A DNA stretch of 64,000 nt, from the IMG/VR virus record IMGVR_UViG_3300044591_002613; one strand, 5' to 3'. The first letter of the stretch is position 1, and each line of letters opens with the position of its first letter. A program made the position numbers and the translations under genes. The DNA is from a virus. Below, piece by piece: positions 4,026 to 48,535 of the stretch. The notes under the pieces were generated by a model. The model was not told the DNA's origin. It worked only from the letters and a program-made list of their open reading frames with translations, and ran no database searches.

Positions 4026-5738
4026 ATGAGCATTCATCATCTTAAAAAAATGCACAAAATGTGTAAGGCAATGCCCGTTGATCAGGCCGTAGAAGAAATC
4101 AAAGGACCGGCTAAAGTCAATGAAGTAATGCCTAAAGTTGCTCCAGAAGATCGAGCCGATGTTTTTAACAAGTTGCGAATGGAAAAAGCAACAGAGCTAC
4201 AAAAACAGGCTATGCCAGCTGGCGGTGCAAGACCTGGGACAGAAATGAGCCCGGCTATGGTTCAAACTTCTTCTCAAACTGCAATGGCAAAAGCGGACGA
4301 AGAGAACGATGACGCTGCTCTTACAGATGCTATGAAAGATTTAAAACGTCAGAAAAGATTTAGAGATGTAGCTAAGTTAGCACAGGACATGGGCGAAGCT
4401 GCAGAGCGTAGTGGAGATGCAAAAACAGCGCAGGCTCACTATAAAACTGCTCTAAGATATCACAATAAACATGCCGAACAAGACTATACAGGAAAACCTG
4501 TTGATGTTAGTGTTCCTAAAACCGAAGCAGTAACCGTTCCAAGAAAAGTTGGTCGTGATACTGAAGTACGTCGTCAGTTTGAGCAAGATCTTGCGCCTTT
4601 GCAAGAAGAACTTAGGTCTTTAACTAAACCAAAAACCGAAGAAGAAATTAAAAACGCACAAGATCCAAAGATTGCTCCTCAAAGATTAAAAAGAATTAAA
4701 GAATTAAACGAGCAAATTTTAGACAGAAAACAAAAATTTGGCGCTGCAGCACTTGGCCTTGGCGATCCTAAATCACCTAACTATGATCCTGATTTTGAAG
4801 ATCCCGATACAAAAAGTGCTCTTTATGATCCTAATGTTTCTATGGCTGCAGAACAATTCCGCGCACAACAAAAACCCGTTTCTGAAGAAATGCCAAAAGA
4901 ATTCTTGGAACAAGAAGAAACTAGACAGGTTCCTGGGTTTGAAACAAAACGTCAATACCAAGGAAGAGCCGATCAAAGTTTATCAAGCAGAAGTTACTCA
5001 CCAGATTCTCGTGGCTCGTTGACACAATTAACAGGGCCTGGAGTAAGAGGTGTGCCTGGTCGTAGTTCTAAGTTCGGTCCTAGCGCACAGGCTCAGGCTG
5101 AACACATGGATTGGTTTTTAGCTCGTCAAGGGGCTAAGGGTGGTTCTGGACTAAGGCCACAAGGAGCGGCTGAACGAGAAGTAGGCGATGCAACCGAAGG
5201 GGCGGCGCAAGAAGCACAAAGCGTTGTCTCGCAACCAAATTATTCTCCCGGTTCTGGTGAATTCAAAAGAAAAGTCAAGCCAAAATCTGGTGGCGGAGAT
5301 GTAGTAGCAGGCGGTGGCGCGGCTGAATATGCAGCTAGAATTGCTGAACTAAAGGCTAGACAAGAGGCAGCCCAAAAACAAAAAGTTTCCGCTGAAGCTC
5401 AAAAACCACAAGAAATTCCTTCTGCGAATGAAGGATTTGTAGCAATGCCTAAAGCAGAAATTGAAAGAAGAATGAAAGAAAAACAAGGCGCAAGCGACGA
5501 ACAGGCTGCTAAGTCTATGTATAAATCTGCAGAGCAGGCTAAAAATCCAGCGTTTATGAAAAGACCAAAAGAAGGGACGGTTGCTGGCGAAATTCCAGAA
5601 TCCGACATTGTTGGTGACTATTCTAAACGAATGGGAGAAGAAAAATCTGTGAATGACAAGCCAGCAAAAAAACAAGGGTTTGGCAGCGCGGAAACTCTTA
5701 AAAAGGCCCATTCTTTATTAAAGAAGAAATATAAATAA
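4026..5738 (+). CDS. Low-complexity, probably internal head (prohead core/ejection) protein
   Basis: About 570 aa, rich in A/E/K/Q/G and hydrophilic, with several x-x-K-A/S motifs near both ends; GGAG RBS before ATG 4026. Confidence 0.55.
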   Translation: MSIHHLKKMHKMCKAMPVDQAVEEIKGPAKVNEVMPKVAPEDRADVFNKLRMEKATELQKQAMPAGGARPGTEMSPAMVQTSSQTAMAKADEENDDAALTDAMKDLKRQKRFRDVAKLAQDMGEAAERSGDAKTAQAHYKTALRYHNKHAEQDYTGKPVDVSVPKTEAVTVPRKVGRDTEVRRQFEQDLAPLQEELRSLTKPKTEEEIKNAQDPKIAPQRLKRIKELNEQILDRKQKFGAAALGLGDPKSPNYDPDFEDPDTKSALYDPNVSMAAEQFRAQQKPVSEEMPKEFLEQEETRQVPGFETKRQYQGRADQSLSSRSYSPDSRGSLTQLTGPGVRGVPGRSSKFGPSAQAQAEHMDWFLARQGAKGGSGLRPQGAAEREVGDATEGAAQEAQSVVSQPNYSPGSGEFKRKVKPKSGGGDVVAGGGAAEYAARIAELKARQEAAQKQKVSAEAQKPQEIPSANEGFVAMPKAEIERRMKEKQGASDEQAAKSMYKSAEQAKNPAFMKRPKEGTVAGEIPESDIVGDYSKRMGEEKSVNDKPAKKQGFGSAETLKKAHSLLKKKYK

Positions 5739-5977
5739 TGTTACTAAAACCATTTAATGGCTGCAGGCGCACTGCAATTGCATTTTATACAATAACAGTC
5801 TTAGCAATCCTAGGATTTGTTAACGATATAGACGTTGCAAGTCCAATTGCGTCTGTAGCCATTGCATTGGCTGCCGTAAATGGTGTAGAAAAAGCATACA
5901 AAGAACCTCGCATGAAACAAAAAGAGGATACTGAGTATGTTGGAAATGGACCAAAGAACAAAAAAGCTAGTAGCTGA
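5738..5977 (+). CDS. Putative holin
   Basis: Two hydrophobic segments and a charged C-terminal tail; directly upstream of the endolysin. Confidence 0.65.
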   Translation: MLLKPFNGCRRTAIAFYTITVLAILGFVNDIDVASPIASVAIALAAVNGVEKAYKEPRMKQKEDTEYVGNGPKNKKASS

Positions 5978-6383
5978 GTTAATCCCACCGGCAAAAGAAG
6001 TAATGACTCGAATGCTAGAAATTGCATATGCCAACGGGCTAAATATGCAGTGCCATTCTGGTTATAGAGCACCCGAAGATCAAGACAAACTTTATGCCCT
6101 TGGACGTACCGAGCCTGGAAAGATTGTTACAAACGCAAAGGGTGGTCAGTCTACACATAATTATCGTTTAGCCTGCGATTTCCATTTTGTGGACAAAAAA
6201 GGCGCTATTATTTGGGACGAAAAGCTTTATCGCAAAATTTGGAGCCTAGTAAAGCCTATTCTTGAGCCAAAAGGTTTAAGATGGGCCGGTAATTGGAAAA
6301 AATTCAAAGAAACTGCTCATTTTGAATATAATCCACAAAATTTATCATGGCGTGATTTACAAAAGAAGAATCCTTATGTTTGA
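5937..6383 (+). CDS. Endolysin, peptidase M15 (L-Ala-D-Glu peptidase, Ply500/CwlK-like)
   Basis: SGYR..EDQ..LYA.GRT.PG.IVTNAKGGQS.HNY..A.D and WAGNW..F.E..HFE motifs. Confidence 0.92.
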   Translation: MLEMDQRTKKLVAELIPPAKEVMTRMLEIAYANGLNMQCHSGYRAPEDQDKLYALGRTEPGKIVTNAKGGQSTHNYRLACDFHFVDKKGAIIWDEKLYRKIWSLVKPILEPKGLRWAGNWKKFKETAHFEYNPQNLSWRDLQKKNPYV

Positions 6384-6930
6384 TAAAAAATATATTATAG
6401 TCGGAACGTTATGCCTAGTAGGCGGATATGCTATTGGTTATGGCAACCGTCCCGCGCCAGACATTCAAGTTAAAGAAGTATTTGTTTTCGATACCGAAAA
6501 ACTAGAAAAGGCTATTGCTGAAGAACGCGAACGTCTGGAAAAAGAATATCAATCTAAAAAATCCGAAAAAAAGATCACCAAGAAAATAACTAAGCCAAAT
6601 GGTGAAATTATTGAAACCACTAAAGAAGAATCTAAGTCCGAAGAAAATAGCTCCGAAGTTGTGCAAAAAGATAAAAAAGAATCAAAAGAAACTAAAGAAA
6701 CTGAAAGCGTGAAAAAAGAAACTGAAATTGTCCAAAAACAAAATTTATCTAAATATTCTGCCGGATTAATGGCAGAAAAACCAGTTGATAAACTATTATC
6801 GACTAAGCCAACTGAAGAATTAAACGTTGAATTAAATCTTGGGTTTAGATTGTATGGGCCACTATGGATTGAAACTGGATATGGGTTTAAAGATAAAAGC
6901 CTTGCCCTAGGATTTAAACTAGAGTTTTGA
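6376..6930 (+). CDS. Spanin-like protein: N-terminal TM/signal, charged stalk, C-terminal amphipathic beta-strands ending in Phe
   Basis: Follows the endolysin; YIIVGTLCLVGGYAIGYG hydrophobic segment, K/E-rich stalk, C-terminus ...LALGFKLEF. Confidence 0.6.
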   Translation: MFDKKYIIVGTLCLVGGYAIGYGNRPAPDIQVKEVFVFDTEKLEKAIAEERERLEKEYQSKKSEKKITKKITKPNGEIIETTKEESKSEENSSEVVQKDKKESKETKETESVKKETEIVQKQNLSKYSAGLMAEKPVDKLLSTKPTEELNVELNLGFRLYGPLWIETGYGFKDKSLALGFKLEF

Positions 6931-7210
6931 CATAAAAACTTCTAGAATTTGTATTGGAAATTTATTATCTGCTAAAAACTCTAAAAGATCTATTTTTGAA
7001 TTTGTTTCAAAGATAGATTCTTTTTTTATTTCTTCATATGAAATGATTTGTCCTTTAGTGTCTGTTAACATTACCCAAAAAAAACGCGGCAACCCAAGGT
7101 TGCCATGATGTAAGTTTTTCTTATTTATTCTTGTTGGCATTTTATACTTTTTGATATTGTTCCAACTAGGAAAGTTTGAACGCCACCATAAAAAGTACGA
7201 CTTAGGTTTT

Positions 7211-31008: not shown

Positions 31009-32853
31009 ATGAGCAGCGCTATTATATTTAATGGCGATTATCTAAAAGCCCTCAAACCTAAACTGAAACTCAGTGATGCTGCGTATATAGAAACTGGATC
31101 TGCAGATCCTACCACTTTATCATTATCATCGCCAACCGGCTCGCTTTATCTTAGATCAAACGGCGCTCTTTATATTAAATATGCCGCTGCGGCTTCAGCA
31201 TGGGCTCCTGCATTAACTACCGGTACTGGTGGCACTTTAACTAGCACGTCTTTGCAAGACAGTACGGTTTATTTTGTTGATGAAATAGACCCTACTAAAA
31301 AATTGTATTTTCAACTGTCTGGTATTAGCAATAACACATCAATAACTTTAACAATTCCAAACACTAGTGGAACTATTCCATTAGGAACAAGCACAAACGG
31401 ATATGTTACATACTGGAGTGCTACCAACACATTGACCGGCGAGGCGCAACTCGCCTCCACAAGAGGTGGTACCGGTGTTAATAACACAGGTACGCTTACT
31501 TATGGCTCTAATAATATTACATTTACTACATCTGGAGTAACAGCCCTTACTCTGCCAGCCGTAGGAACAGTAGCTACTCTTGCCGGCATCGAAAACTTTG
31601 ATAATAAAACAATTAATTCTTCGTCGATTGGTTCTACAACAGCAAGCTCTGGCGCTTTTACCTATTTAACAGTAAAAGGTACCGGTTCTGCCGGAACTGC
31701 ATATGTTGATTTATTAAACGAATCATCTGCTCCAACTTCTCCAACCGTTGGATATACAAGGTTTTATACCACCGCTGATGTTTTAAATTTAAAAAACGCT
31801 GCTAACGAAGTATTTGCAATTGATTATTCTGGAATAACAGCATCGAGAACGTTAACAGCTCCAAATATATCCTCAACAATTGCCACTTTAGATGGAAACC
31901 AAACCTTTACAGGCGTGCTTTCATTAAGCACAGCAAATGCTGTAAGCCTAGCAATTACCGGTGGACTTAAAGTTGGTAATGTGACGTCTACGGCTGCTAC
32001 AGCGGGTAGCGGTGCAATAAAGTATACAAGCGGCTTTTTGTATTATTCCGATGGCACAAACTGGAATACTATTGCGCAGTATGCAAACTCTATATACCAA
32101 AGCACATCGTTTACGGCTTCAAATAACGTCAATTATTTCGTTGATACTACATCCGTCGCAGTTACTGCTACATTGCCGTCGGGTTCAGTTAATGCGCGTA
32201 TCAGATTTGCCGATGTAAAAGAAAAATGGGGATTGAATAATTTTACAATCACCCCGGCAACTGGTGAAAAAATTGATAACTTAGCAATAAATGAATCTTT
32301 AATCATGGACATTAATGGTTCGTGGATTGAGCTGGCATGGGATTCTACATCCTCTTCTTGGGTTGTAACTGGCTCATTGTCATACGGAACTACACCTTTT
32401 GGTTTTGTTACCCATACTGGAAATAGCTTAGCAACTGATTTACTAATCGGTACTAATGATAATTATGCTCTAGCGTTTGAAACAAACGGATCAGAGCGTA
32501 TGAGAATTACTAATACAGGATTTGTTGGAATTAATACACTTTCTCCGCAAGCGCCACTAGATCTTAGCGGTGGCTTCAAAGGTTCTTATGATTCTTACGC
32601 TGTAAATGCAAATTTAAATAAATATCACCATTTTGTGGTTGCTACCGCCGCCATCACTTTAAATTTACCAACATTAACATCAAACGATGCAGGGTTTACT
32701 CTTTATATTAAAAGAGTTACAGCGACTGGAATTGTAACTATAAATCCCGGTGTTGGTGTCACAATTGATGGCGCTAGTTCATGGCCATTAACATCAAATT
32801 ACGAATCAGTTAAATTAGTTTGGCGCGGTTCTACTGATTGGAGTATTTTCTGA
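31009..32853 (+). CDS. Mosaic fibre/adaptor protein A with two gp9/gp10-like domains
   Basis: First ~250 aa closely paralogous to 39388; internal YFVDTT..AVTATLP...GEKIDN and C-terminal ITLNLP...TIDG...ESVKLV domains. Confidence 0.78.
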   Translation: MSSAIIFNGDYLKALKPKLKLSDAAYIETGSADPTTLSLSSPTGSLYLRSNGALYIKYAAAASAWAPALTTGTGGTLTSTSLQDSTVYFVDEIDPTKKLYFQLSGISNNTSITLTIPNTSGTIPLGTSTNGYVTYWSATNTLTGEAQLASTRGGTGVNNTGTLTYGSNNITFTTSGVTALTLPAVGTVATLAGIENFDNKTINSSSIGSTTASSGAFTYLTVKGTGSAGTAYVDLLNESSAPTSPTVGYTRFYTTADVLNLKNAANEVFAIDYSGITASRTLTAPNISSTIATLDGNQTFTGVLSLSTANAVSLAITGGLKVGNVTSTAATAGSGAIKYTSGFLYYSDGTNWNTIAQYANSIYQSTSFTASNNVNYFVDTTSVAVTATLPSGSVNARIRFADVKEKWGLNNFTITPATGEKIDNLAINESLIMDINGSWIELAWDSTSSSWVVTGSLSYGTTPFGFVTHTGNSLATDLLIGTNDNYALAFETNGSERMRITNTGFVGINTLSPQAPLDLSGGFKGSYDSYAVNANLNKYHHFVVATAAITLNLPTLTSNDAGFTLYIKRVTATGIVTINPGVGVTIDGASSWPLTSNYESVKLVWRGSTDWSIF

Positions 32854-32854
32854 T

Positions 32855-33514
32855 ATGGCGTACTTACCATTTCCATCAGGAACATTATTAACGTTTGCCG
32901 GATCAACAGCACCAGATGGCTGGCTTTTATGTGACGGTTCTGCAGTAAGCAGGACGACTTACGCTCGTCTATTTGCTGCAATTTCTACTACATACGGTAA
33001 CGGTGATGGCGCTTTAACATTTAACATACCAGATTTACGCGGTGTTTATCCGCGTGGCGCGGGAACAAATGGCACAGCAAACTATGGTGGTGTAACTGGC
33101 CACACACCAACAGCAGGTGTTTTAGCTACTAAAGGTGGGCAAAAGACTGCAAAAAATGGTTTGAGCAATGCCGCAAGCTCATTATCTGCGTTAACATTAA
33201 ACAGCAGCGGCGTTTCTGGATCTGCTACTTCTGGCGGTGTAGATCATACACACACTGCAGGCATCTTTCGCAATACCGCAGATTTTACAAACGGAACCAC
33301 TGGTCTAATTAGACAAGGTGGAGCTTCGACCCCTACTAGTTTTGGTACGGCAGAGGCAACAGCAGGCGCATCGGCCTTTAACCATACACATGGATTATCT
33401 GGGACTGCAGCGGCTCAGGGTCTTTCTTCTAGCACCGTTACCGCACAAACAATTACTGGCGATACCGAAACAACTCCTGCCTTTTTGGCAGTTAACTATA
33501 TTATCAAACTATGA
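32855..33514 (+). CDS. Tail-collar (T4 gp12-like) short fibre, two HxH motifs
   Basis: PSGTLLTFAG..APDGWLLCDGSAVSRTTYARLF...FNIPDLRG; ends NYIIKL. Confidence 0.9.
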   Translation: MAYLPFPSGTLLTFAGSTAPDGWLLCDGSAVSRTTYARLFAAISTTYGNGDGALTFNIPDLRGVYPRGAGTNGTANYGGVTGHTPTAGVLATKGGQKTAKNGLSNAASSLSALTLNSSGVSGSATSGGVDHTHTAGIFRNTADFTNGTTGLIRQGGASTPTSFGTAEATAGASAFNHTHGLSGTAAAQGLSSSTVTAQTITGDTETTPAFLAVNYIIKL

Positions 33515-33557: not shown

Positions 33558-34229
33558 ATGATTGTTACTAAAGATACATCTGTTAATTTTCCATTTTTTA
33601 TTATTAAAGATTTTCTTCCAAATCCAGAACTGTATAGAAAAATGGTTTTAGAAGGGGAATACGATAAAACCAACGGTTATTGGGTGGGGGATAATGTCAT
33701 TCTTCCGCAAGAATTTAAAGACAGAACACTAGAATATATTCTAGATACTGCGGCAAAAACACTAAACGACTATGTGTGGACACATCGACCATTCATTTCA
33801 TTTCGCAGATTAGAACAGCCCAGAACATCTGAACTAGCCGCGCATGTTGATCGACCAAAAGAATTTGACTTTGATAACCAAGGACGTCCTATTTATGCCA
33901 ATTATAAATATTGGGCCTTCATTTTAGATTTTACTCCGCAAGATAAATCTGCAAGATTTTGTTTTTGCGAAAACGACAGTGGCGAGCGCTTTGTTAAAGC
34001 GAGTACCCTTCCAGATTTAGAAAGACAAAAAGATTTTTCTAAGTGGAGTATTTATAAAGATTTTTATTATTCGTATAATACAGCAATTATGTTTCCAGCT
34101 CACTTCTGGCATACAGCAATTGACTTTACATGTTCTAAAGAACTGCCTAGAACAATGGCTGTAACATGGTTTTATTCTGGATTTAATGCAAAATATAATA
34201 AATGTGGTATACCATCTATTGATGAGTAA
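33558..34229 (+). CDS. 2OG-Fe(II) oxygenase-like protein (DUF6445-like)
   Basis: IIKDFLPNP N-terminus, HVD, YN..IMFPA.FWH and distal R (PRTMAVTWF): HxD...H facial-triad pattern. Confidence 0.7.
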   Translation: MIVTKDTSVNFPFFIIKDFLPNPELYRKMVLEGEYDKTNGYWVGDNVILPQEFKDRTLEYILDTAAKTLNDYVWTHRPFISFRRLEQPRTSELAAHVDRPKEFDFDNQGRPIYANYKYWAFILDFTPQDKSARFCFCENDSGERFVKASTLPDLERQKDFSKWSIYKDFYYSYNTAIMFPAHFWHTAIDFTCSKELPRTMAVTWFYSGFNAKYNKCGIPSIDE

Positions 34230-36951: not shown

Positions 36952-37416
36952 ATGGCTCAGGTGCCGTTAATTAATCATACAACCGCGCTAAATCCAAATC
37001 GACCAGCATTTTTGGTCGGCTGGCCCGGCTCCATGTCTATTACTGGCACCGCTGCTCTTCCACCAACTGGCGGAACTGTAAAGATCAATATTGGATCAAA
37101 TTTTAATACGTCTACAATGCGGTTTACGTGTCCCGTTAACGGCGTTTATATGATAGGTGGTAGTTATTTAAGACAAAGTAGTAATAACATAGTTGTTCGT
37201 ATGAACGCATATAAAAATGGAGTTTCTGAAGGGCAACAACTCCGTACAACAGAAGGTTATACGGGATATAATTACACTGCGGGTCAATGGTGGATAATAA
37301 ACGCAAATGCTGGAGATTTATTAGATATCAGAATTTGGTCTGATGCCCCGACCACATTATACGCAGACACAGGAAGCGCTGAGTATAATTGGGTTTCCGG
37401 ATATTTATTAGGATAA
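36952..37416 (+). CDS. C1q/TNF-like domain protein (putative fibre tip/adhesin)
   Basis: PAF...NIGSNFN.ST.RFTCPVNGVY...GD.L.I...SGYLLG matches the C1q signature. Confidence 0.78.
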   Translation: MAQVPLINHTTALNPNRPAFLVGWPGSMSITGTAALPPTGGTVKINIGSNFNTSTMRFTCPVNGVYMIGGSYLRQSSNNIVVRMNAYKNGVSEGQQLRTTEGYTGYNYTAGQWWIINANAGDLLDIRIWSDAPTTLYADTGSAEYNWVSGYLLG

Positions 37417-39387: not shown

Positions 39388-42039
39388 ATGAGCGGCGCTG
39401 TTATATTTAATGGCGATTATGTCAAGGCGTTAAAATCTAAGCTAAAACTTGGCGAAGCCGCTTATATTGAAACTGGATCTGCAGATCCTACTACTCTGTC
39501 CCTTAGCTCTCCACTTGGCTCATTATACTTAAGATCAAACGGTATAGTTTACATTAAATACGCAGCCGGTGTTTCAGCATGGGCCCCTGCATTAACTACT
39601 GGCACCGGCGGTACATTAACATCTACAGCTCTGCAAGACAGCACTGTTTATTTTGCGGATGAAACGGATCCCACCAAAAAACTGTTTTTCCAACTATCTG
39701 GAATTGATAATAACACATCAAGAACTTTAACAGTTCCAAATACTAGCGGCACAATTACTCTTGGCACAGCATCTACCAATCAGGTTGCTTATTGGAACAG
39801 CACTAATACGTTAGCTGGAGAAGCTCAATTATCACCAACAAGAGGTGGTACCGGAACTAGTAACACTGGTTTATTTAGTTATGGCTCTAATAACATTACG
39901 TTAACGACAACCGCTTCAACAAGTCTAACTCTGCCCACCTCTGGCACATTAGCTACTCTAGCCGGTGCAGAAGCTTTAACTAATAAAACTATCAACTCAT
40001 CTTCGATTGGTGCAACCACTGCAAGTTCCGGTGCATTCACCTTTCTTACATTAAAAGGCACAGGCGTTGCGGGCACCGCATATTTCGATTTCTTGAATGA
40101 ATCAGTAACACCCTCGTCCCCGCTTTCCGGCTATACACGAATTTATTTTAAATCGGACGGTTCTCTTTATTACTTGAGTTCTGCAGCAGTTGAAAAGAAA
40201 ATTGGTGATATTGCACACCCAACTACCGGATCAACATTTGAGACTGGTGCGTTTAATGCATTAATGACTGGTACAAATAATACAGCGTTTGGTGTTGCAT
40301 CTTTAGACTCAGTAACTTCCGGCGTGCAAAATACTGCCTTCGGCACAAATGCACTGGCTGCCTTGACAATTGGAACAAATAACACTTCTGTTGGTTATAA
40401 TGCGTTAACAACTTTAACAGATGGTTCTGATAATACAGCAATTGGCTGGCGCTCGATGCGGCTTGTTACTAGTGGTTATAGCAACACAGCAGTTGGTAAC
40501 CAGTCCTCCGAATTAATGACAACCGGATCAGATAACACTGCGGTTGGTTATTTTGCTTTAAGAAATGTTACAGATGGATTTGGCAATGTTGCAATCGGTT
40601 CTGGCGCTGGTCTTTTATTAGGCGGCTACAGTAATAACAACGTATGCATCAATACAGGCGGGGCATTAACTCCCGGTTCTGTTTTAAGCGGCACAGTTAC
40701 CATCGGAAAAACAGCAGCAGGTGGTGGTTCTTACGCCACGGCTGATAACCAATTTGTATTAGGCGATTCTGGCCATCTTTATAGATTCCCTGGTATTGCG
40801 GAAACTTCTTTAATTCTTGGCCCTACCGGAACATTGGCAGGAAATGGTGGCGAGCTTAGATTTAGAGAGCTAGCAGCAAATGGCACAAACTCAGTTGCGT
40901 TTAAAGCTGCAGATTCTATCATCGCAAATGTTACATGGACACTGCCAGCCGCTGACGGCACAAACGGCCAAGCATTAATTACAAATGGTTCAGGCACACT
41001 GCGATGGGCAGAGGCCACTAACACAATTGTAGAAGTTACTCAAAATTCGCATGGATTCACAACTGCCGATATTGGCAGACCGTTATACTTAAACGGATCT
41101 ACGTATACCTACGCAATTGCTAATGCGACAAACACAGCCGAAGTAGCTGGATTAATATACAAAATCGTAGATACAAATACATTCTTAGTTTGTTTAAGTG
41201 GTGAAGTTGCTTCAGTTGGGGCAAACTTAATTGAAGGCGGTGGATCGCTAGTAGCCGGCGAAACATATTTTCTTTCACCGACAACTGCCGGAAAAATTAC
41301 TACATCAGATCCTACAGTAGTTGGGCAAGTATCTAAGCCTATTGGCGTTGCTCGCTCTACAACTGCGTTTGAATTTTTCAACATGCGCGGTTCAGTTGTT
41401 GGTGGTGCTAATGCCAGAACGCAGCTTTCGTTATCTAATAATGCAATAACAACAATTCAAGTAGCCTCTGCTTACGATGCCGGCGAATTAACTGGCTGGG
41501 TAACTATTGACGCAACTACTGATTATCGTTTTTATGTTCAAGCCCAGTTCGCCAAAAATGGCGCTGGGACTGACTATAACATTTCATATCAAACCATGGG
41601 CGATGTTCCGCCACTTGGATTTAGCGTTACTATCACTGCCGCTGGTTTAATACAAATCACTCTGCCAAATATTGCGGGGTTTGTTAATGCGGGCGTTAAC
41701 TTTGCATTAAATGCTCCAGCTGTTGGCGCAACTTTTCCGTTAACAATTGGCGGAAATAATATAGTAGCAAATTATAGAGCAGTTACAGGAACGTATACAA
41801 TCACACCATCTGATTACTATGTATCTGCTTCTGGTGCTGCTGGATACACAATCAGTTTGCCCGCAACATCCTCCGTATCCGGTAAAATATTTATTGTAAA
41901 AAGCAGACTAAATGCTGGCCAAGTTTTGACAATTGATGCCAATGGTTCGGAAACTATTGATGGTTCTTTAACGGTTGGTCTATTCCAAAACGAGTCTTGC
42001 TATTTAGTCAGCAATGGCACATCTTGGGAGATGTTCTAA
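39388..42039 (+). CDS. Mosaic fibre protein C (A-type N-terminus, B-type middle, gp10-like C-terminus)
   Basis: MSGAVIFNGDY N-terminus as in 31009; HPTTGSTFE, NTAxG repeats, ELRFRELAANG and AEVAGL blocks as in 34241; C-terminal TISLP...TIDG...WEMF. Confidence 0.82.
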   Translation: MSGAVIFNGDYVKALKSKLKLGEAAYIETGSADPTTLSLSSPLGSLYLRSNGIVYIKYAAGVSAWAPALTTGTGGTLTSTALQDSTVYFADETDPTKKLFFQLSGIDNNTSRTLTVPNTSGTITLGTASTNQVAYWNSTNTLAGEAQLSPTRGGTGTSNTGLFSYGSNNITLTTTASTSLTLPTSGTLATLAGAEALTNKTINSSSIGATTASSGAFTFLTLKGTGVAGTAYFDFLNESVTPSSPLSGYTRIYFKSDGSLYYLSSAAVEKKIGDIAHPTTGSTFETGAFNALMTGTNNTAFGVASLDSVTSGVQNTAFGTNALAALTIGTNNTSVGYNALTTLTDGSDNTAIGWRSMRLVTSGYSNTAVGNQSSELMTTGSDNTAVGYFALRNVTDGFGNVAIGSGAGLLLGGYSNNNVCINTGGALTPGSVLSGTVTIGKTAAGGGSYATADNQFVLGDSGHLYRFPGIAETSLILGPTGTLAGNGGELRFRELAANGTNSVAFKAADSIIANVTWTLPAADGTNGQALITNGSGTLRWAEATNTIVEVTQNSHGFTTADIGRPLYLNGSTYTYAIANATNTAEVAGLIYKIVDTNTFLVCLSGEVASVGANLIEGGGSLVAGETYFLSPTTAGKITTSDPTVVGQVSKPIGVARSTTAFEFFNMRGSVVGGANARTQLSLSNNAITTIQVASAYDAGELTGWVTIDATTDYRFYVQAQFAKNGAGTDYNISYQTMGDVPPLGFSVTITAAGLIQITLPNIAGFVNAGVNFALNAPAVGATFPLTIGGNNIVANYRAVTGTYTITPSDYYVSASGAAGYTISLPATSSVSGKIFIVKSRLNAGQVLTIDANGSETIDGSLTVGLFQNESCYLVSNGTSWEMF

Positions 42040-42755
42040 TGGCATTTTTAGGTATTGCACCAACCGGAACAGTATTACCGTTTGCCGGTTCAGTAGCACC
42101 AGAAGGCTGGGCATTGTGCGATGGTTCGGCTATCAGTCGCACAATATATACAAAACTATTTGTCGTTATTTCAACTACATATGGAGTTGGCGATAACTCA
42201 TCAACATTTAATGTTCCTGATATGCGCGGTGTTTATCCGCGTGGCGCTGGCACAAACGGCACAGCGAATTATGGTGGAGTAACTGGACATACTCCAGCGG
42301 GTGGAGCATTGGCTGCAAAAGGTGGACAAAAGACCGCTAAGAATGGATTAACAAATGCATCTGCTACAACAACTTCTTCTGGTAACAGGAATCAATTTGA
42401 TAGAACTAGCGGAACGGTGAGTTCTGATCATGTTCATGGAACTGGAAATGCCGGAGGCCATTCACACTTTGTAGCTTATGGTAATTTTGGTGGCGATGAT
42501 TTTAACTTGATTGACGGCACTTACGCAGAACGTTTACAAATGGCAGATGCACCAGATAATGATATTGGAGTGTATGCAGATGGTGTTGGTGATCATAATC
42601 ACGGCAATACAGGGGGTATATCTGCTAACCACACCCATACGGTTACATATGACAGTACGTTTTCTGTTTCTGGAACTACGCCAGCACAAACAATTACTGG
42701 AGATGCCGAAACCACACCCGCGTTTTTAGCCCTTAATTATATTATTAAGTTATAA
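42039..42755 (+). CDS. Tail-collar short fibre (triplet 1, member 1)
   Basis: TAATG coupling to the upstream gene; collar motif; four HxH; closest to 32855. Confidence 0.9.
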   Translation: MAFLGIAPTGTVLPFAGSVAPEGWALCDGSAISRTIYTKLFVVISTTYGVGDNSSTFNVPDMRGVYPRGAGTNGTANYGGVTGHTPAGGALAAKGGQKTAKNGLTNASATTTSSGNRNQFDRTSGTVSSDHVHGTGNAGGHSHFVAYGNFGGDDFNLIDGTYAERLQMADAPDNDIGVYADGVGDHNHGNTGGISANHTHTVTYDSTFSVSGTTPAQTITGDAETTPAFLALNYIIKL

Positions 42756-42764
42756 GAGGATCAA

Positions 42765-43565
42765 ATGGCAAACGCAGCATTACTGGCAACATTAGGAGAC
42801 CAAACTTCGTCGCAAGCTGCGGGCGCAATTTCTGTATTAATGCCAGCAGGTGTTATATTGCCATATGGCGGTGGCACTGCGCCAACAGGCTGGTTACTGT
42901 GTGATGGCTCAGCAATCAGCCGAACTACTTATGCAAGTTTATTTGCTGCAATTGGAACATCGCACGGCTATGGTGATAATTCTACCACTTTCAATTTGCC
43001 CGATTTTCGCGGTAGATTTATGCGTGGTGTAGACGGAACAGCTAATAGAGATCCCGATAAAGGGACTAGAACATCAGCCGCAACCGGTGGTAACACTGGC
43101 AATAACGTCGGTAGTGCGCAAACAAACGCTACTGCTAAGAACGGATTAACAGCAAGTGCAGCTTCGGTGTCAACTTCTGTCAGTGGCGCAAAAAACCAAA
43201 TGAATGGAACTTCTGGAGGTCAAAGTGCTAGCCATTCACATGGAATTGGTACTGATGGATGGCATGATCACATGCAATATGTCACCGCAAATCCAGGCTT
43301 AGGACCATATAACACCAGGCATGACTATAATTATGATGCAAATAATCTTCAAATATACGATCATGTTCGCACAGGTGGTGGAGGCAGCCATTCCCACGGT
43401 GGTGGAACAGGCGGTCAAAGCGTAGACCACTCCCACTCTTGGGATTTTGGTGCGACAACTTTTTCTGCATCAGGGACAACTCCAGCACAAACTGTTACAG
43501 TAGGTAACGGAGATAATGAAACAAGGCCATTAAATATAAACGTTAACTATATTATCAAGGTATAG
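42765..43565 (+). CDS. Tail-collar short fibre (triplet 1, member 2)
   Basis: Collar motif, four HxH, ends NETRPLNINVNYIIKV. Confidence 0.9.
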   Translation: MANAALLATLGDQTSSQAAGAISVLMPAGVILPYGGGTAPTGWLLCDGSAISRTTYASLFAAIGTSHGYGDNSTTFNLPDFRGRFMRGVDGTANRDPDKGTRTSAATGGNTGNNVGSAQTNATAKNGLTASAASVSTSVSGAKNQMNGTSGGQSASHSHGIGTDGWHDHMQYVTANPGLGPYNTRHDYNYDANNLQIYDHVRTGGGGSHSHGGGTGGQSVDHSHSWDFGATTFSASGTTPAQTVTVGNGDNETRPLNINVNYIIKV

Positions 43566-43568
43566 AAA

Positions 43569-44357
43569 ATGTCTAACAGTGCAATTTCTGGACTTACAAT
43601 TATCGATTTTCCAGCAGGAATGATTATGCCATATGCCGGCACATCAACGCCGGCAGGTTGGTTGGAGTGTAATGGTGCAGAAGTTGATGTTTCTGCATAT
43701 CCAACTCTCGCCGCTGCTCTTGGAACTACTTGGAATAATGCTAAAAACCCTTTAACTGGCGCAACATATGCAAACCCGGCAGCTGGTAGGTTTCGTTTAC
43801 CAGACTTACGAGGTTCGTTTTTACGAGGATCTTCTGGCGGAGCTAATAACGCGCAAGGCGTTGCAACAGGATTAGCAGAGTTCCAAGGAAATAAAACAGC
43901 TAAAAATGGATTAACAGCAACAGCCGCATCAGTAACAACTTCTGTGAGTGGTTTAAAAAATCAATTAAATGGAAGTTCTGGCGGTATGTCTGCTAATACA
44001 ACACACGGACATGGAATTTCAGATCCCGGCCATGGCCATGCGCACGGTATCGATACAACCCAAGGATATGCAGTTGGTACGCCTATTTCTGCAACAAGCG
44101 GAGCTACTGGTTTTCAAGGAGGTACGTTTTCTGATCGAGGTGCTACAACAACTGGATCAGGATTTGTGAGAAACGGCGGCACAGGAATTTCAGTTAATGG
44201 ATCTGCCGATTTAAACCACTCCCACTCGTGGGATTTTGGCGGTTCTGCAACTTTTTCTGCATCAGGGACAACTCCAGCACAAACTGTTTCTGTGGGAAAT
44301 GGTGATGCCGAAACAAGACCTGATGCAGTTGGTGTTAGATATTTGATTAAAATTTAA
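43569..44357 (+). CDS. Tail-collar short fibre (triplet 1, member 3)
   Basis: PAGMIMPYAG..TPAGWLECNG...FRLPDLRG; HxH motifs; ETRP...YLIKI. Confidence 0.9.
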   Translation: MSNSAISGLTIIDFPAGMIMPYAGTSTPAGWLECNGAEVDVSAYPTLAAALGTTWNNAKNPLTGATYANPAAGRFRLPDLRGSFLRGSSGGANNAQGVATGLAEFQGNKTAKNGLTATAASVTTSVSGLKNQLNGSSGGMSANTTHGHGISDPGHGHAHGIDTTQGYAVGTPISATSGATGFQGGTFSDRGATTTGSGFVRNGGTGISVNGSADLNHSHSWDFGGSATFSASGTTPAQTVSVGNGDAETRPDAVGVRYLIKI

Positions 44358-44366
44358 GGATTTACC

Positions 44367-44702
44367 ATGGCATTTTATACATCTAAATTTAAACCAACGC
44401 CAGTATTCATGAAGGATTTTTACCTTCAATATTACACAGTTGTTATTACATCTAGTGTAGCTCTAACAGATTTGCCAGTAAATTATCTTTATATTTGCAA
44501 CTCGGCATCAGCAATCACAATCACTCTGCCTTCGGCAGTTAATAAAGATGGTTGCGTTTTATTTTTTAAAAATGTAAATACTGGTAATGTAACTGTTGAT
44601 GGCAATGGGTCGCAAACAATTGATGGACAGTTAACACAAATTTTGCCACAATATTCTTCATTCGAGCTTGTGGCATTTAATGGGAACTGGTTTATTAAAT
44701 GA
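44367..44702 (+). CDS. Stand-alone gp9/gp10-like adaptor domain
   Basis: ITITLPSAV..DG..L.FKN...GNVTVDGNGSQTIDG...F.LV..NGNWFI, the same module that ends 27336, 31009 and 39388. Confidence 0.7.
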   Translation: MAFYTSKFKPTPVFMKDFYLQYYTVVITSSVALTDLPVNYLYICNSASAITITLPSAVNKDGCVLFFKNVNTGNVTVDGNGSQTIDGQLTQILPQYSSFELVAFNGNWFIK

Positions 44703-45433
44703 CGTTAATGAACTTTGTACCAACCGGAACAATCCTTCCAACTGGAGAATCAACAATTCCAGCTGGTTGGCTATTGTGTGATGGATCTGCAGTTAGTAGA
44801 ACTATATATGCAGATTTATTTGGCATGATTGGTACAAACTGGGGAAACGGTGACGGCACCACTACTTTCCATCTACCCGATTTGCGGGGTCGATTTTTAA
44901 GAGGCCGCGACGGTGGAATAGGTCGAGATCCAGACAGATCAACAAGAGTAGCTGCTAATCCCGGTGGCAACGCTGGTGATAATGTTGGCAGCATAGAAGA
45001 CCACGCTTATAAAACTCACAACCATGGCGTTAGTGTTGCCGGCGGTACTACCGGCGGCGAAAGTAATGGCCATATCCATGGTAGTGGTTGGGTATCGCAC
45101 GATCATGGCCATTATATGCCGGCGCAAGGAAATCATTCGCACTGGCATAATGATGCATATTTTGCCGAAGCTGGAGCTGGAAACCAAGGTATTCGCGGCG
45201 AAGGTTATGGCTCTGACTGGGACAACCGTCCACATTATCGATGGATTACATGGAATTGGGCCGGCTGGCATGGACACAGTATGGATGGTAGAAATACAGA
45301 CCACAGGCATTGGGTTGGCGGTCGCGATGCAGGTCATACACACGGAGTGACTTCTTCTGTTTCGGTAACAAATAGTGGCGGTAATGAAACGCGACCCAAA
45401 AATATAATTTTACATTACATGATAAAAGTATGA
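44699..45433 (+). CDS. Tail-collar short fibre (triplet 2, member 1), about seven HxH
   Basis: Collar motif; tip DWDNRPHY and NETRPKNI resemble T4 gp12 DWDNRSY / NETRPWNI. Confidence 0.9.
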   Translation: MTLMNFVPTGTILPTGESTIPAGWLLCDGSAVSRTIYADLFGMIGTNWGNGDGTTTFHLPDLRGRFLRGRDGGIGRDPDRSTRVAANPGGNAGDNVGSIEDHAYKTHNHGVSVAGGTTGGESNGHIHGSGWVSHDHGHYMPAQGNHSHWHNDAYFAEAGAGNQGIRGEGYGSDWDNRPHYRWITWNWAGWHGHSMDGRNTDHRHWVGGRDAGHTHGVTSSVSVTNSGGNETRPKNIILHYMIKV

Positions 45434-46170
45434 CGTTTTTTAAAACAGTTCCACCAGGTACAATTCTTCCTTTTGCTGGCACCGCTGCTCCAGCTGGTTG
45501 GCTATTGTGTGATGGATCTGCAGTTAGTAGAACTATATATGCAGTATTATTTTCAAAAATTTCTACAAATTTTGGTAATGGAGATGGTTCTACAACATTT
45601 CATTTGCCAGATATGCGTGGAAGGTTTGAACGATCACGAGATCATGGTACAAATAGAGACCCCGATAAAATAACACGCACGGCTGCAAATCCTGGCGGTA
45701 ACACTGGTGATAATGTTGGTAGTGCCCAAGACCATAACTACGCATCTCATGGCCATACTAATACTAATAGTATTTCGACTGGTGGAGAAAGTGTAGACCA
45801 TAACCATGGCGATTCGGCTTGGGAATCTGCATATGGTAACCATGCACATGGTGTAAATGGAAATGGAGATCATCAACACGGTTCCGATGACGCATACTAT
45901 TCAGAAAATTATAATGGCGGTGGTGGCTACTATGGTTCAAACCACGGCGGTGATTTTGATAATAGTGCAGACTCTACATCTCAGACTGCCAATAATGCGG
46001 GTTGGCACAACCATGGTACTGATGGTGTTTGGCAGGACCATTACCACGCAACCGGTACTGTTTCTGCATGGCATACTCATTCAGTTCCATTTTCATTAAC
46101 GATTAATACAGATGGTGGAAATGAAACAAGGCCAATAAACGCTAATATTAATTATGTGATAAAAATATGA
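45430..46170 (+). CDS. Tail-collar short fibre (triplet 2, member 2), seven HxH
   Basis: ATGA coupling; collar; DAYYSE...DFDN tip. Confidence 0.9.
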   Translation: MTFFKTVPPGTILPFAGTAAPAGWLLCDGSAVSRTIYAVLFSKISTNFGNGDGSTTFHLPDMRGRFERSRDHGTNRDPDKITRTAANPGGNTGDNVGSAQDHNYASHGHTNTNSISTGGESVDHNHGDSAWESAYGNHAHGVNGNGDHQHGSDDAYYSENYNGGGGYYGSNHGGDFDNSADSTSQTANNAGWHNHGTDGVWQDHYHATGTVSAWHTHSVPFSLTINTDGGNETRPINANINYVIKI

Positions 46171-46895
46171 CCGTATTTAATACATTACCCCCAGGAATAG
46201 TTGTTCCGTTTGGTGGCTCGTCTGCACCACCAGGCTGGCTGCTGTGCGACGGTTCTCCGGTAAGCAGGACTGTATACCAAAATCTTTTTTTATCAATCGG
46301 AACAGTTTGGGGAAATGGAGACGGCTCTACAACATTTCATCTACCCGATTTACGCGGTCGGTTTTTACGCGGAAAAGATGGCGGCATAGGAAGAGATCCA
46401 GACCGAACTACAAGAACTGCCGCAAATCCTGGCGGTAACACTGGTGATAATGTTGGTAGTGTTCAAGATAATGCGCATGGACACGATCATGCAAATACCA
46501 GATCAGCCACCTCGGCTACTCCAAGTGTAAACCATACACATGGAAATACTGGGTGGATTAGTAATAATCATGGCCATTACATTTACGGAAATAATGACCA
46601 TACGCATTGGCGTTCAGATGCTCATTTTAGCTCTCCGCCGAGCGCAAGTTTATTTGGCACAAATCAAAGATACGACTCTGATAATGGACGATATACTCAT
46701 GGAATTAACTCAAATACAACCGGAAACCATGAGCACTGGACAGCTGGAATTGACACAAATCACCAACATAATAGCGGTGGCAGATCTGCAGATCATACTC
46801 ACGTGGCTACAGCCGGTGTTACGATCAATAGTAATGGCACAACAACCGAAACTAGACCTTTAAATGCAAACGTAAATTATATTATAAAAATATAA
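46167..46895 (+). CDS. Tail-collar short fibre (triplet 2, member 3), about seven HxH
   Basis: ATGA coupling; collar; DAHFS...DSDN tip. Confidence 0.9.
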   Translation: MTVFNTLPPGIVVPFGGSSAPPGWLLCDGSPVSRTVYQNLFLSIGTVWGNGDGSTTFHLPDLRGRFLRGKDGGIGRDPDRTTRTAANPGGNTGDNVGSVQDNAHGHDHANTRSATSATPSVNHTHGNTGWISNNHGHYIYGNNDHTHWRSDAHFSSPPSASLFGTNQRYDSDNGRYTHGINSNTTGNHEHWTAGIDTNHQHNSGGRSADHTHVATAGVTINSNGTTTETRPLNANVNYIIKI

Positions 46896-46915: not shown

Positions 46916-47533
46916 ATGAAAATTATTATTAAAAAAGGCGAGCCTCTTTGGAACTCTGATGGTTTTCATGTTTTAGATGACAGAGGTTTTGCAGTCGTTA
47001 GCGAAGAACTTCATAAAGAAATAATCATTACAAATCCAGAAGCGGTCGAAAGAGTAAAAAAATCTTTGCGCCGTGACCGCTGGGATGAAATTTATGTTTT
47101 GGCATTAAATAGCACAGAACAATTTTTGCAAGAAAAGCAAGAGCAACTTCTTGATTACGAAGAAGAGCAAAAAAAAATTGAAACTGAACAATTACAAAAA
47201 TCAGAAGAACAATTAAAAATGGAACTTCAAGTGCGCCAGCAAGAACTCGAAGCTCAACGATTGGCATTTGAAATTCAACGTCGCGCAGAACAAGCAGAGC
47301 GTGATGCAGAAATGGCTCGTATACTCCAGGAACAAAAAGAAAAAGACGAAAAAGCCATAGCTGATTCCGAAGTTGAGATGGCTCGTCTTCGTGCTCAAAC
47401 CGAACCAATTATTGCAGAGCGCAAAGCTCGAGAAAAGGCTGAAGCTGAAGCCGCTGCCGCTGAAAAACTAGCACAAGAAGAGCTAATCAAGCAGCTATTA
47501 GAACGAATTGATTCTCTTGAAAAAAGTAAATAA
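46916..47533 (+). CDS. Coiled-coil protein, putative fibre assembly chaperone
   Basis: N-terminus similar to 26970; long E/Q/K/A coiled coil; follows the collar array. Confidence 0.5.
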   Translation: MKIIIKKGEPLWNSDGFHVLDDRGFAVVSEELHKEIIITNPEAVERVKKSLRRDRWDEIYVLALNSTEQFLQEKQEQLLDYEEEQKKIETEQLQKSEEQLKMELQVRQQELEAQRLAFEIQRRAEQAERDAEMARILQEQKEKDEKAIADSEVEMARLRAQTEPIIAERKAREKAEAEAAAAEKLAQEELIKQLLERIDSLEKSK

Positions 47534-47545
47534 TTGAGGGAATAT

Positions 47546-48535
47546 ATGAAACTCCAAAAATTAATTGTAAAAGATGTAAAAGATCTTTTGCCGGGTAGTG
47601 AAATTGAAATTGACAGTAATTTTATTATTCAAGATAATAAAGTTATTTCGTATGGAATTGAATCAAAATATATTTCCGAAGAAACAATTAATCCCGAAGA
47701 CGATAAAGAAAAACAAAAACTAGAAGAAGCCAAAAGAAAAAAAGAAGAAGAACTACAAGAATTTAAAGAAAAACGACAAATTAGATGTGGAAGGCATTAT
47801 CTCCATCAAGAACATGGAATGATCGCAATTCCTCAATCTGAAGAAAAGTTTTTTGAAACTAATACAAGTATGTATTTAAAGAAACTTTTTTCTAACTTCT
47901 TTGAAAAGAGTGATCTTTTAAGAGAAAAATTCAAAAGAAATAAACGCGCATATTTGCTTTATTCTGAACCGGGTATGGGTAAATCTGCTCTTATTCGTAA
48001 TTTTACCGAGTATGTTCTTCAAAATGAAGGTACAGCGGTAGTCCAAGTTGATGGCGATATTAACTTTAATATGCTTACCCACATCTTTTTAAGTCCATAC
48101 GCAGAAGATGTTAAACGTATTATTGTGGTTATTGAAGACTTTGGCAAAAAAGATTCCGTACAGAATTCAACCGTATTTAATCCGTCATGCTTAAACTTTC
48201 TTGATGGCACTGCCGGTCTTTTTCGTGTTCCAACAATGATTCTTTGCACGACTAACTTTGCTAAACAACTAGGCCCACAACTAACTAATAGACCAGGTCG
48301 TTTTAATAAGCTTATTAAAGTGCTCCCCCCTTCTGATGAAGAAGTTTTTCAGTTAGTAGAAGGTGTGGGCAAAATTAAAATGACTGAGTCGCAAAAGTCT
48401 GCATTTCGTGGCAAGGGAATGACTCCAGACCATGTAATTGAAGCAATTGTTCGCCATGAGCTTGAAGAAATTACATTAGAGCAGTCTGTAAATGAAGTAT
48501 TATATGAACGAGAGGGAATGACGCAGTGGAATTAA
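47546..48535 (+). CDS. AAA+ ATPase
   Basis: Walker A YSEPGMGKS, Walker B VVIEDF, LNFLDG, TTN and RPGRF (second region of homology). Confidence 0.92.
   Translation: MKLQKLIVKDVKDLLPGSEIEIDSNFIIQDNKVISYGIESKYISEETINPEDDKEKQKLEEAKRKKEEELQEFKEKRQIRCGRHYLHQEHGMIAIPQSEEKFFETNTSMYLKKLFSNFFEKSDLLREKFKRNKRAYLLYSEPGMGKSALIRNFTEYVLQNEGTAVVQVDGDINFNMLTHIFLSPYAEDVKRIIVVIEDFGKKDSVQNSTVFNPSCLNFLDGTAGLFRVPTMILCTTNFAKQLGPQLTNRPGRFNKLIKVLPPSDEEVFQLVEGVGKIKMTESQKSAFRGKGMTPDHVIEAIVRHELEEITLEQSVNEVLYEREGMTQWN

Follow-up and report, generated by a model that had tools for sequence, protein, structure and literature searches.

Phage receptor-binding fibres are usually described as homotrimers, each offering three identical binding sites. 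Two sets of three tandem genes on a 64,000-nucleotide (nt) stretch of viral DNA (IMG/VR record IMGVR_UViG_3300044591_002613; hereafter the window, to which all positions refer) raise the question of whether some fibre tips might be built from three different chains. Each set encodes short collar-needle proteins, here called A1, A2 and A3 (triplet 1) and B1, B2 and B3 (triplet 2), and the region is predicted from gene content and sequence similarity to encode receptor-binding tips at the outer end of a branched tail-fibre system. A preliminary description of the window had read both sets as possible heterotrimeric or combinatorial fibres. For triplet 2, a single old triplication kept intact, a locked register of HxH motifs and the precedent of a heterotrimer in the virophage DSLV2 mean that 1:1:1 assembly has to be taken seriously; for triplet 1 the evidence tends the other way, the HxH counts being 1, 4 and 2 in the related phage contig L001 and A genes also occurring singly. 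Overall, a B1–B2–B3 heterotrimer, with the A proteins more likely forming homotrimers, has in our judgement about an even chance of being correct.

Triplet 2 and its copy number

The two triplets and the proteins on which they are thought to dock are arranged as follows (aa, amino acids; AF2, AlphaFold2; pLDDT, predicted local distance difference test score):

39388–42039, plus strand: 883-aa tail fibre whose residues 783–883 (about 41734–42039) form a gp10/TSP4-like module (module hidden Markov model, HMM, E 2e-43; phrog_4636, tail spike)
42039–42755, plus strand: A1, 238 aa, four HxH (Pfam Collar E 3.3e-22; orthogroup support 100/100)
42765–43565, plus strand: A2, 266 aa, N-terminal extension of ~19 aa, four HxH (Pfam Collar E 1.8e-23)
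43569–44357, plus strand: A3, 262 aa, 11-aa insertion in the collar (Pfam Collar E 1.6e-17)
44367–44702, plus strand: 111-aa free-standing gp10/TSP4-XD-like adaptor, disordered N-terminal arm and beta-sandwich (AF2 pLDDT 84; Foldseek)
44699–45433, plus strand: B1, 244 aa, collar and seven-HxH needle (Pfam Collar E 2.6e-22; PDB sequence and Foldseek matches)
45430–46170, plus strand: B2, 246 aa, collar and seven-HxH needle (Pfam Collar E 8.4e-23; orthogroup support 100/99)
46167–46895, plus strand: B3, 242 aa, collar and seven-HxH needle (Pfam Collar E 2e-23; orthogroup support 100/99)

The six collar-needle open reading frames (ORFs) lie where the preliminary description had placed them and are of the type it had proposed. 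All six carry the Collar domain PF07484 at the N-terminus (63.6–82.7 bits with a cut-off of 24 bits; E 1.6e-17 to 1.8e-23) and all six are closed by the C-terminal return strand of the collar (ETRP/ETTP..NYIIK), preceded by a histidine-rich stretch. Searched by sequence against the PDB, B1 matches the A-1(L) long fibre (8kec, E 1.2e-8) and T4 gp12 (1ocy, E 2.4e-5), the alignment with the latter taking in the C-terminal GNETRPxNxxLNYIIKV and, on the gp12 side, the segment GNETRPWNISLNYIIKV. In the AF2 monomer model of B1 the collar is confident, with a pLDDT of 94 for the C-terminal strand, and the needle lies below 50; Foldseek matches the model to 8kec (the A-1(L) fibre), gp12 and the gp37 tip 2xgf. 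The six proteins are the C-terminal part of a T4 gp12/gp37-type fibre: a collar with an inserted histidine-rich needle and no shaft.

T4 gp37 binds iron at seven sites, to each of which three chains contribute an HxH motif; in gp12 there is a single zinc site. B1, B2 and B3 contain seven core HxH sites each (residues 107, 125, 136, 146, 191, 202 and 213 in B1) and A1–A3 contain four, all of them putative metal sites. The near-common register of about seven HxH motifs noted for triplet 2 in the preliminary description, like the three different tips, is borne out by a wider comparison. All 19 of the 19 sequences in the triplet clade have seven HxH motifs at offsets 0, 17 (18 in B1), 29, 39, 84, 95 and 106 and are 242–246 aa long; single-copy B relatives have four to six sites in 222–267 aa. 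The tip (sites 4–5) measures 42 aa in all three paralogues of the related contigs L001 and L008, and the exceptions to the register are 2-aa indels, in B2 of the window lineage and in B3 of two lineages. The tip sequences (DAYFAE..DWDN in B1, DAYYSE..DFDN in B2 and DAHFS..DSDN in B3) differ among paralogues yet rank among the best-conserved parts between orthologues. The ATGA overlaps are likewise real at all three junctions (adaptor/B1, B1/B2 and B2/B3), and L001, L008 and the P0012 contig retain overlaps of 4 nt.

Three genes follow the adaptor in the window and its 95% variants (L009/L011), in L001–L004 and in L008, whilst fragments with B2–B3 or B1–B2–B3 and 4-nt overlaps are found on three further short contigs. 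Gene order and orthogroups of triplet 2 are the same in the window/L011, L001 and L008, and the B2–B3 adjacency recurs in three more contigs. A single gene of 230, 239 or 267 aa follows the adaptor in L005, L012/L096, L269 and L270–272. The idea that copy number might stay a multiple of three among relatives therefore holds for the window, L001 and L008 and fails for L005, L012/L096, L269 and L270, where it is one; it is never two. Neither a two-copy state after the adaptor nor loss of one copy was seen in any relative recovered.

In phylogenetic trees B1, B2 and B3 each form a clade (support 100/99) within which the order of the phages is identical, and the single-copy genes form a basal grade. 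The stem of the triplet clade has a length of 0.48, the branch uniting two of the paralogues one of 0.09 (support 74/54) and the paralogue stems 0.31–0.34. This pattern points to a single triplication from a single-copy gene, with a short two-copy stage and no loss seen since, and the B triplication is judged from the sequences to be of independent origin within the phage lineage, from a single-copy phage gene. The B orthogroups are also recovered from the collar domain alone, indicating that the tandem copies have not been homogenised by gene conversion.

A precedent for the joint assembly of three such proteins comes from the virophage DSLV2: when one chain carries a His tag, the products of its three consecutive PF07484 genes are pulled down together as a heterotrimer. 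The complex runs at ~55 kDa on native polyacrylamide gel electrophoresis (PAGE), AlphaFold3 (AF3) scores the heterotrimer above homotrimers, and 44 related virophages retain all three genes (Chu et al., J Virol 2025, PMC12724248). A literature search for other heterotrimeric tail fibres returned wedge heterotrimers only.

Copy numbers across the family were surveyed with PF07484 in 401 Bacteroidota genomes, the best 150 of 181 matches being used. Among these, tandem collar runs comprise about 59 singles, 7 pairs and 26 triplets, with none longer; the raw call had been 8 pairs and 25 triplets, but on inspection one of the pairs proved to be a triplet and the other seven held up. Five further genomes, selected since their loci already showed triplets, have collar genes in sets of 3, 3, 3, 3 and 3+3 only, counted over the whole genome. 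An excess of triplets over pairs, with no run above three, is unlike free duplication and loss and fits sets of three that work together.

At eight Bacteroidota loci (L259–L266, from G062, G192, G256, G340, G332, G140, G046 and G017) there are pairs or triplets of ~180-aa collar proteins ending in ..NYxIxxxGIFPSR. At two of the eight (L259 and L265) the adjoining protein of ~330–360 aa ends in GIYF(Y/C)RL..., resembling a sorting tail of the type IX secretion system (T9SS); the ~380-aa neighbours at L260 and L266 have other endings.

Were triplet 2 to encode a heterotrimer, B1, B2 and B3 would co-assemble 1:1:1 to give one needle per adaptor trimer, coupled translation supplying them in equal amounts. 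Each of the seven metal sites would take HxH motifs from all three B chains, and the needle tip would be asymmetric, built of three different segments of 40–42 aa; A1, A2 and A3 would form separate homotrimers. Such an assembly accounts for the presence of exactly three genes, their fixed order and coupled translation, and a register that is locked in comparison with the variable single-copy relatives. Prediction of a complex of B1, B2 and B3 with 4 Fe (79-row alignment per chain) gave 0.21/0.18, under the 0.32 mark, and counts neither way.

Several observations weigh against a B heterotrimer. All solved relatives (T4 gp12, gp37 and A-1(L) gp34) are homotrimers, and the single-copy B gene behind the same adaptor shows that a homotrimer suffices there. 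Site 2 of B1 falls one residue later than in B2 and B3, B2 of the window lineage has two extra residues (AY) between HxH sites 2 and 3, and the B3 tip is 2 aa shorter (40 aa) in the window lineage and P0015, so that a strict common register would need to absorb paralogue offsets of 1–2 aa. Paralogue-specific departures from family-conserved collar residues are few, the known triplet lineages number about seven, all of them fairly close relatives, and true collar-gene pairs exist in Bacteroidota, so that the family does not require sets of three. The shared length, register and HxH motifs could also be ancestral, kept by the fold in three homotrimers.

The best-placed alternative is that all six tips (seven with that encoded at 32855–33514, described below) are homotrimers and that B1–B3 are alternative tips competing for one adaptor trimer, mixed specificities per virion broadening or securing host recognition. 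We regard this as a tenable explanation, at clearly less than an even chance. Besides the homotrimeric state of every solved relative—A-1(L) gp34 is described as trimers—and the 1–2-aa spacing differences among the B paralogues, it can draw on the at least four lineages in which a single B gene follows this adaptor, on the lone collar that follows a module elsewhere in the window (32855–33514) and on the three distinct tips, each conserved, as would be expected for three receptors; three homotrimers on one adaptor type fit most of the same data on triplet 2. It leaves unexplained, however, the absence of lineages with two copies or with one lost, as well as lengths and 21 HxH motifs that are locked whilst single-copy relatives and triplet 1 vary freely. 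Nor does it explain why collars docking on one identical adaptor should have paralogue-specific residues and no gene conversion, or why triplets exceed pairs across the family (best 150 of 181 matches). The B1–B2–B3 heterotrimer remains our preferred reading.

Putative docking modules and triplet 1

How the needles are attached is suggested by the proteins that precede them. The preliminary description had placed a gp10-like module ahead of each triplet, and this stands: the 111-aa ORF can be aligned, at 33% identity, with the C-terminal ~100 aa of the 883-aa fibre. The AF2 model of the 111-aa protein (pLDDT 84) is a small beta-sandwich with a disordered N-terminal arm, for which Foldseek returns Solidus gp83 as best match (E 6.8e-6), residues 1–250 of CBA120 TSP4 (E 1.4e-3; TM-score on the query, TMq, 0.61) and T4 gp10 (5iv5_AC; E 0.036, TMq 0.56). 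Because this fold resembles tailspike N-terminal domains, the CBA120 TSP4 XD region and T4 gp10, the label 'gp10-like' is a fair one. In relatives the adaptor is 75–86% identical. We considered whether the 111-aa protein might be a fibre chaperone and rejected this in view of its homology with structural fibre C-termini and of the contig L053, where an adaptor and a collar protein are fused (see below).

A third instance of a module followed by a collar gene lies upstream of the triplets:

31009–32853, plus strand: 614-aa fibre whose last ~70 aa (about 32635–32853) form a gp10/TSP4-like module; phrog_958 baseplate wedge match inside the protein
32855–33514, plus strand: seventh collar-needle gene, 219 aa, A1-type, two HxH (Pfam Collar E 9.9e-23), a single copy right behind the module-bearing 614-aa fibre

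The C-terminus of the 614-aa fibre aligns with the module (hhalign, E 3.3e-5, 35% identity) up to the very C-terminus of both. The seventh collar gene begins 1 nt past the fibre gene and scores 80.3 bits with PF07484. Its product is 50% identical to A1 overall, with a collar that is near-identical over RGVYPRGAGTNGTANYGGVTGHTP..KTAKNGL, suggesting a recent exchange between the two A1-type genes. The junction of module and collar thus occurs three times in the window, with one collar gene behind the 614-aa fibre, three behind the 883-aa fibre and three behind the adaptor; a search of the window for an eighth collar gene with our own HMM and Pfam found these seven and no more. From this arrangement we infer that the tips are hung on a gp10/TSP4-XD-like module, be it a fibre C-terminus or the free adaptor. 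The module is common at fibre C-termini in IMG/VR, where most of 80 module-bearing loci have no adjoining collar gene, so it is a general end or docking domain and not specific to collars.

Further clues to the place of the adaptor come from a distant, unrelated contig (L053, IMGVR_UViG_3300036985_004708). At 5425–6288 this encodes a single protein of 287 aa in which an A3-type collar (52% identity to A3, E 2e-29, with the diagnostic insertion of A3 included) is fused to a whole adaptor (residues 3–110, 35% identity, E 2e-15), and one collar-needle gene (6301–6951) lies directly behind it. In line with this, the gene directly upstream of the adaptor is of A3 type wherever that place is taken by a collar (window, L001, L008, L012, L096 and L269). 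Together, the fusion and the gene order suggest an adaptor that is mounted on A3 and bears the B needle or needles, placing the two triplets in series. Most likely, as far as gene order and homology can tell, the adaptor sits on the A3 collar, and triplet 2 would thereby be attached to one of the triplet 1 proteins. The complete architecture—an obligate B1–B2–B3 heterotrimer with a seven-metal needle and an asymmetric head, hung in series from A3 via a split-off gp10-like adaptor—falls in our estimate just short of an even chance.

Triplet 1 behaves differently. As described previously, A1, A2 and A3 share a stem running from TAKNGL to SGTTPAQT with three or four HxH motifs; the count is four in each protein when overlapping words are included. 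These counts are not coordinated among relatives: the window has 4/4/4 for A1/A2/A3, L001 has 1/4/2, and L012 has 4/4/3 with the motifs placed differently. The proteins are of unequal length (238, 266 and 262 aa) and their genes do not overlap, with intergenic gaps of 9 and 3 nt; the stop codon of the 883-aa fibre gene and the A1 start overlap as TAATG. A1-type and A3-type genes are found singly in L008, L269, L096 and the window (32855). Uncoordinated HxH motifs, unequal lengths, lack of overlap and single A-type genes argue against an in-register metal heterotrimer of A1–A3; a heterotrimer is unlikely for triplet 1, and separate homotrimers are more likely.

In a second alternative both triplets form heterotrimers, A1–A2–A3 on the module of the 883-aa fibre and B1–B2–B3 on the adaptor, which would then sit on the A3 chain only. 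The A1–A2–A3 order is kept in the window, L001/L004, L012 and L099, the chains of the DSLV2 heterotrimer are also unequal (196, 205 and 247 aa; PMC12724248) and triplets are in excess across the family (best 150 of 181 Bacteroidota matches). Even so, a three-gene collar set conserved in the manner of DSLV2 is found for triplet 1 only in part, as L008 and L269 carry single A-type genes, and the scattered HxH sites (1, 4, 2 in L001; 4, 4, 3 at different positions in L012), the A-type genes that occur singly, the A3–adaptor fusion of L053 without A1 or A2 partners and the lack of translational coupling make this explanation improbable. Free mixing of the paralogues, which would give combinatorial tips with up to ten different B needles per phage and which the preliminary description had entertained since near-equal length and register would permit it, is very improbable, for it predicts no pressure for exactly three ordered genes and tolerated gene conversion, contrary to what is seen, and is without precedent.

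The phage and the surrounding genes

The window is part of a larger phage genome, identical copies of B1 being present on contigs of up to 164 kb, and the phage itself is novel, with a genome of about 164 kb and a baseplate of the contractile-tail type. Freshwater metagenomes yielded relatives of the locus. In searches of 50,697 phage records, megablast gave no near match to the locus, tblastn found nothing for a 620-aa structural protein and tblastn with B1 returned pieces of the collar domain only. B1 as a single-protein query found nothing in IMG/VR, and the adaptor as a metagenome query added one new contig and no more. The block around the triplets consists of baseplate and tail-fibre genes, including a gp6-like wedge within a 2325-aa protein, several fibres and tube-like paralogues.

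Two genes always follow the last B gene in relatives. The first (46916–47533) encodes a Glu/Lys/Gln-rich protein of 205 aa (125–205 aa in relatives), the second (47534–48535) a 333-aa AAA-type ATPase with the Walker A motif GMGKS and weak Pfam AAA matches; the two may have a role in fibre assembly. Within the fibre block, a 223-aa ORF (33558–34229) looks non-structural and has an HVD...H pattern that recalls 2-oxoglutarate (2OG)-Fe(II) oxygenases. It has no Pfam match, its sole match being phrog_1644 'minor coat protein' (E 3e-11), and in L001 and L008 ORFs that are also of 223 aa occupy the matching place ahead of the fibre gene. A 154-aa protein encoded among the small fibre genes (36952–37416) contains a C1q domain (Pfam E 4e-6), a domain that in relatives is found at the end of a 1637-aa fibre (L005).

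Significance and comparison with known systems

The protein family and the virophage heterotrimer are already known, whilst heterotrimeric tips have not yet been shown for a tailed phage. If the preferred reading is right, what is new is a heterotrimeric seven-metal needle in a tailed phage, which would be the first heterotrimeric receptor-binding fibre in Caudoviricetes; the split-tip-on-module architecture with its A3–adaptor link would be a further novelty. A needle of three chains would present one asymmetric surface or three faces and so alter how host range is predicted from sequence or engineered. Taken together with the virophage and bacterial cassettes, it would also mark the triplication of a homotrimeric tip as a recurrent route to asymmetric binding sites. 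The locus is a good test case, as one and the same adaptor is followed by a triplet here and by a lone tip gene in sister phages, the seven HxH motifs provide a built-in ruler of chain register and the proteins are small (about 27 kDa) and easily co-expressed. More generally, the grammar of a module followed by a collar, including the split or fused A3–adaptor, could aid the reading of branched fibre systems in uncultured phages.

The closest structural counterparts are the tips of T4 gp37 (2XGF) and gp12 (1OCY/1H6W), in which, likewise, a needle inserted into the collar leads back to it and HxH motifs are present. In T4 these tips end long homotrimeric shafts, whereas here they are separate, shaft-less genes for proteins of 238–266 aa, in seven paralogues. 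The module has its counterparts in T4 gp10 and the XD domains of CBA120 TSP4 and TSP2, the branching adaptors of multi-tailspike phages, with which it shares the same small beta-sandwich and a location where a docking site is expected. It is N-terminal in those proteins but C-terminal or free-standing here, and the partner predicted here is a collar domain in place of the N-terminal domain of a tailspike.

Tandem triplets of short, near-equal collar genes, far more numerous than pairs, are also known in bacteria as the MdpB-like tail-collar proteins (COG4675, 'microcystin-dependent protein'). These proteins are of ~170–200 aa and lie outside phages, and the B triplication in the phage is a separate event. 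The nearest parallel to the assembly proposed here is DSLV2, with three consecutive, co-oriented PF07484 genes of about gp37-tip size in a set that is conserved among relatives. DSLV2, however, is a virophage whose fibre docks on a capsid capsomer, with chains of 196, 205 and 247 aa, and 'HxH' is absent from the text of the paper (PMC12724248); the present locus belongs to a tailed phage and has two triplets, the second of them with near-equal lengths, seven HxH motifs per chain and gp10-like docking as predicted from its genes.

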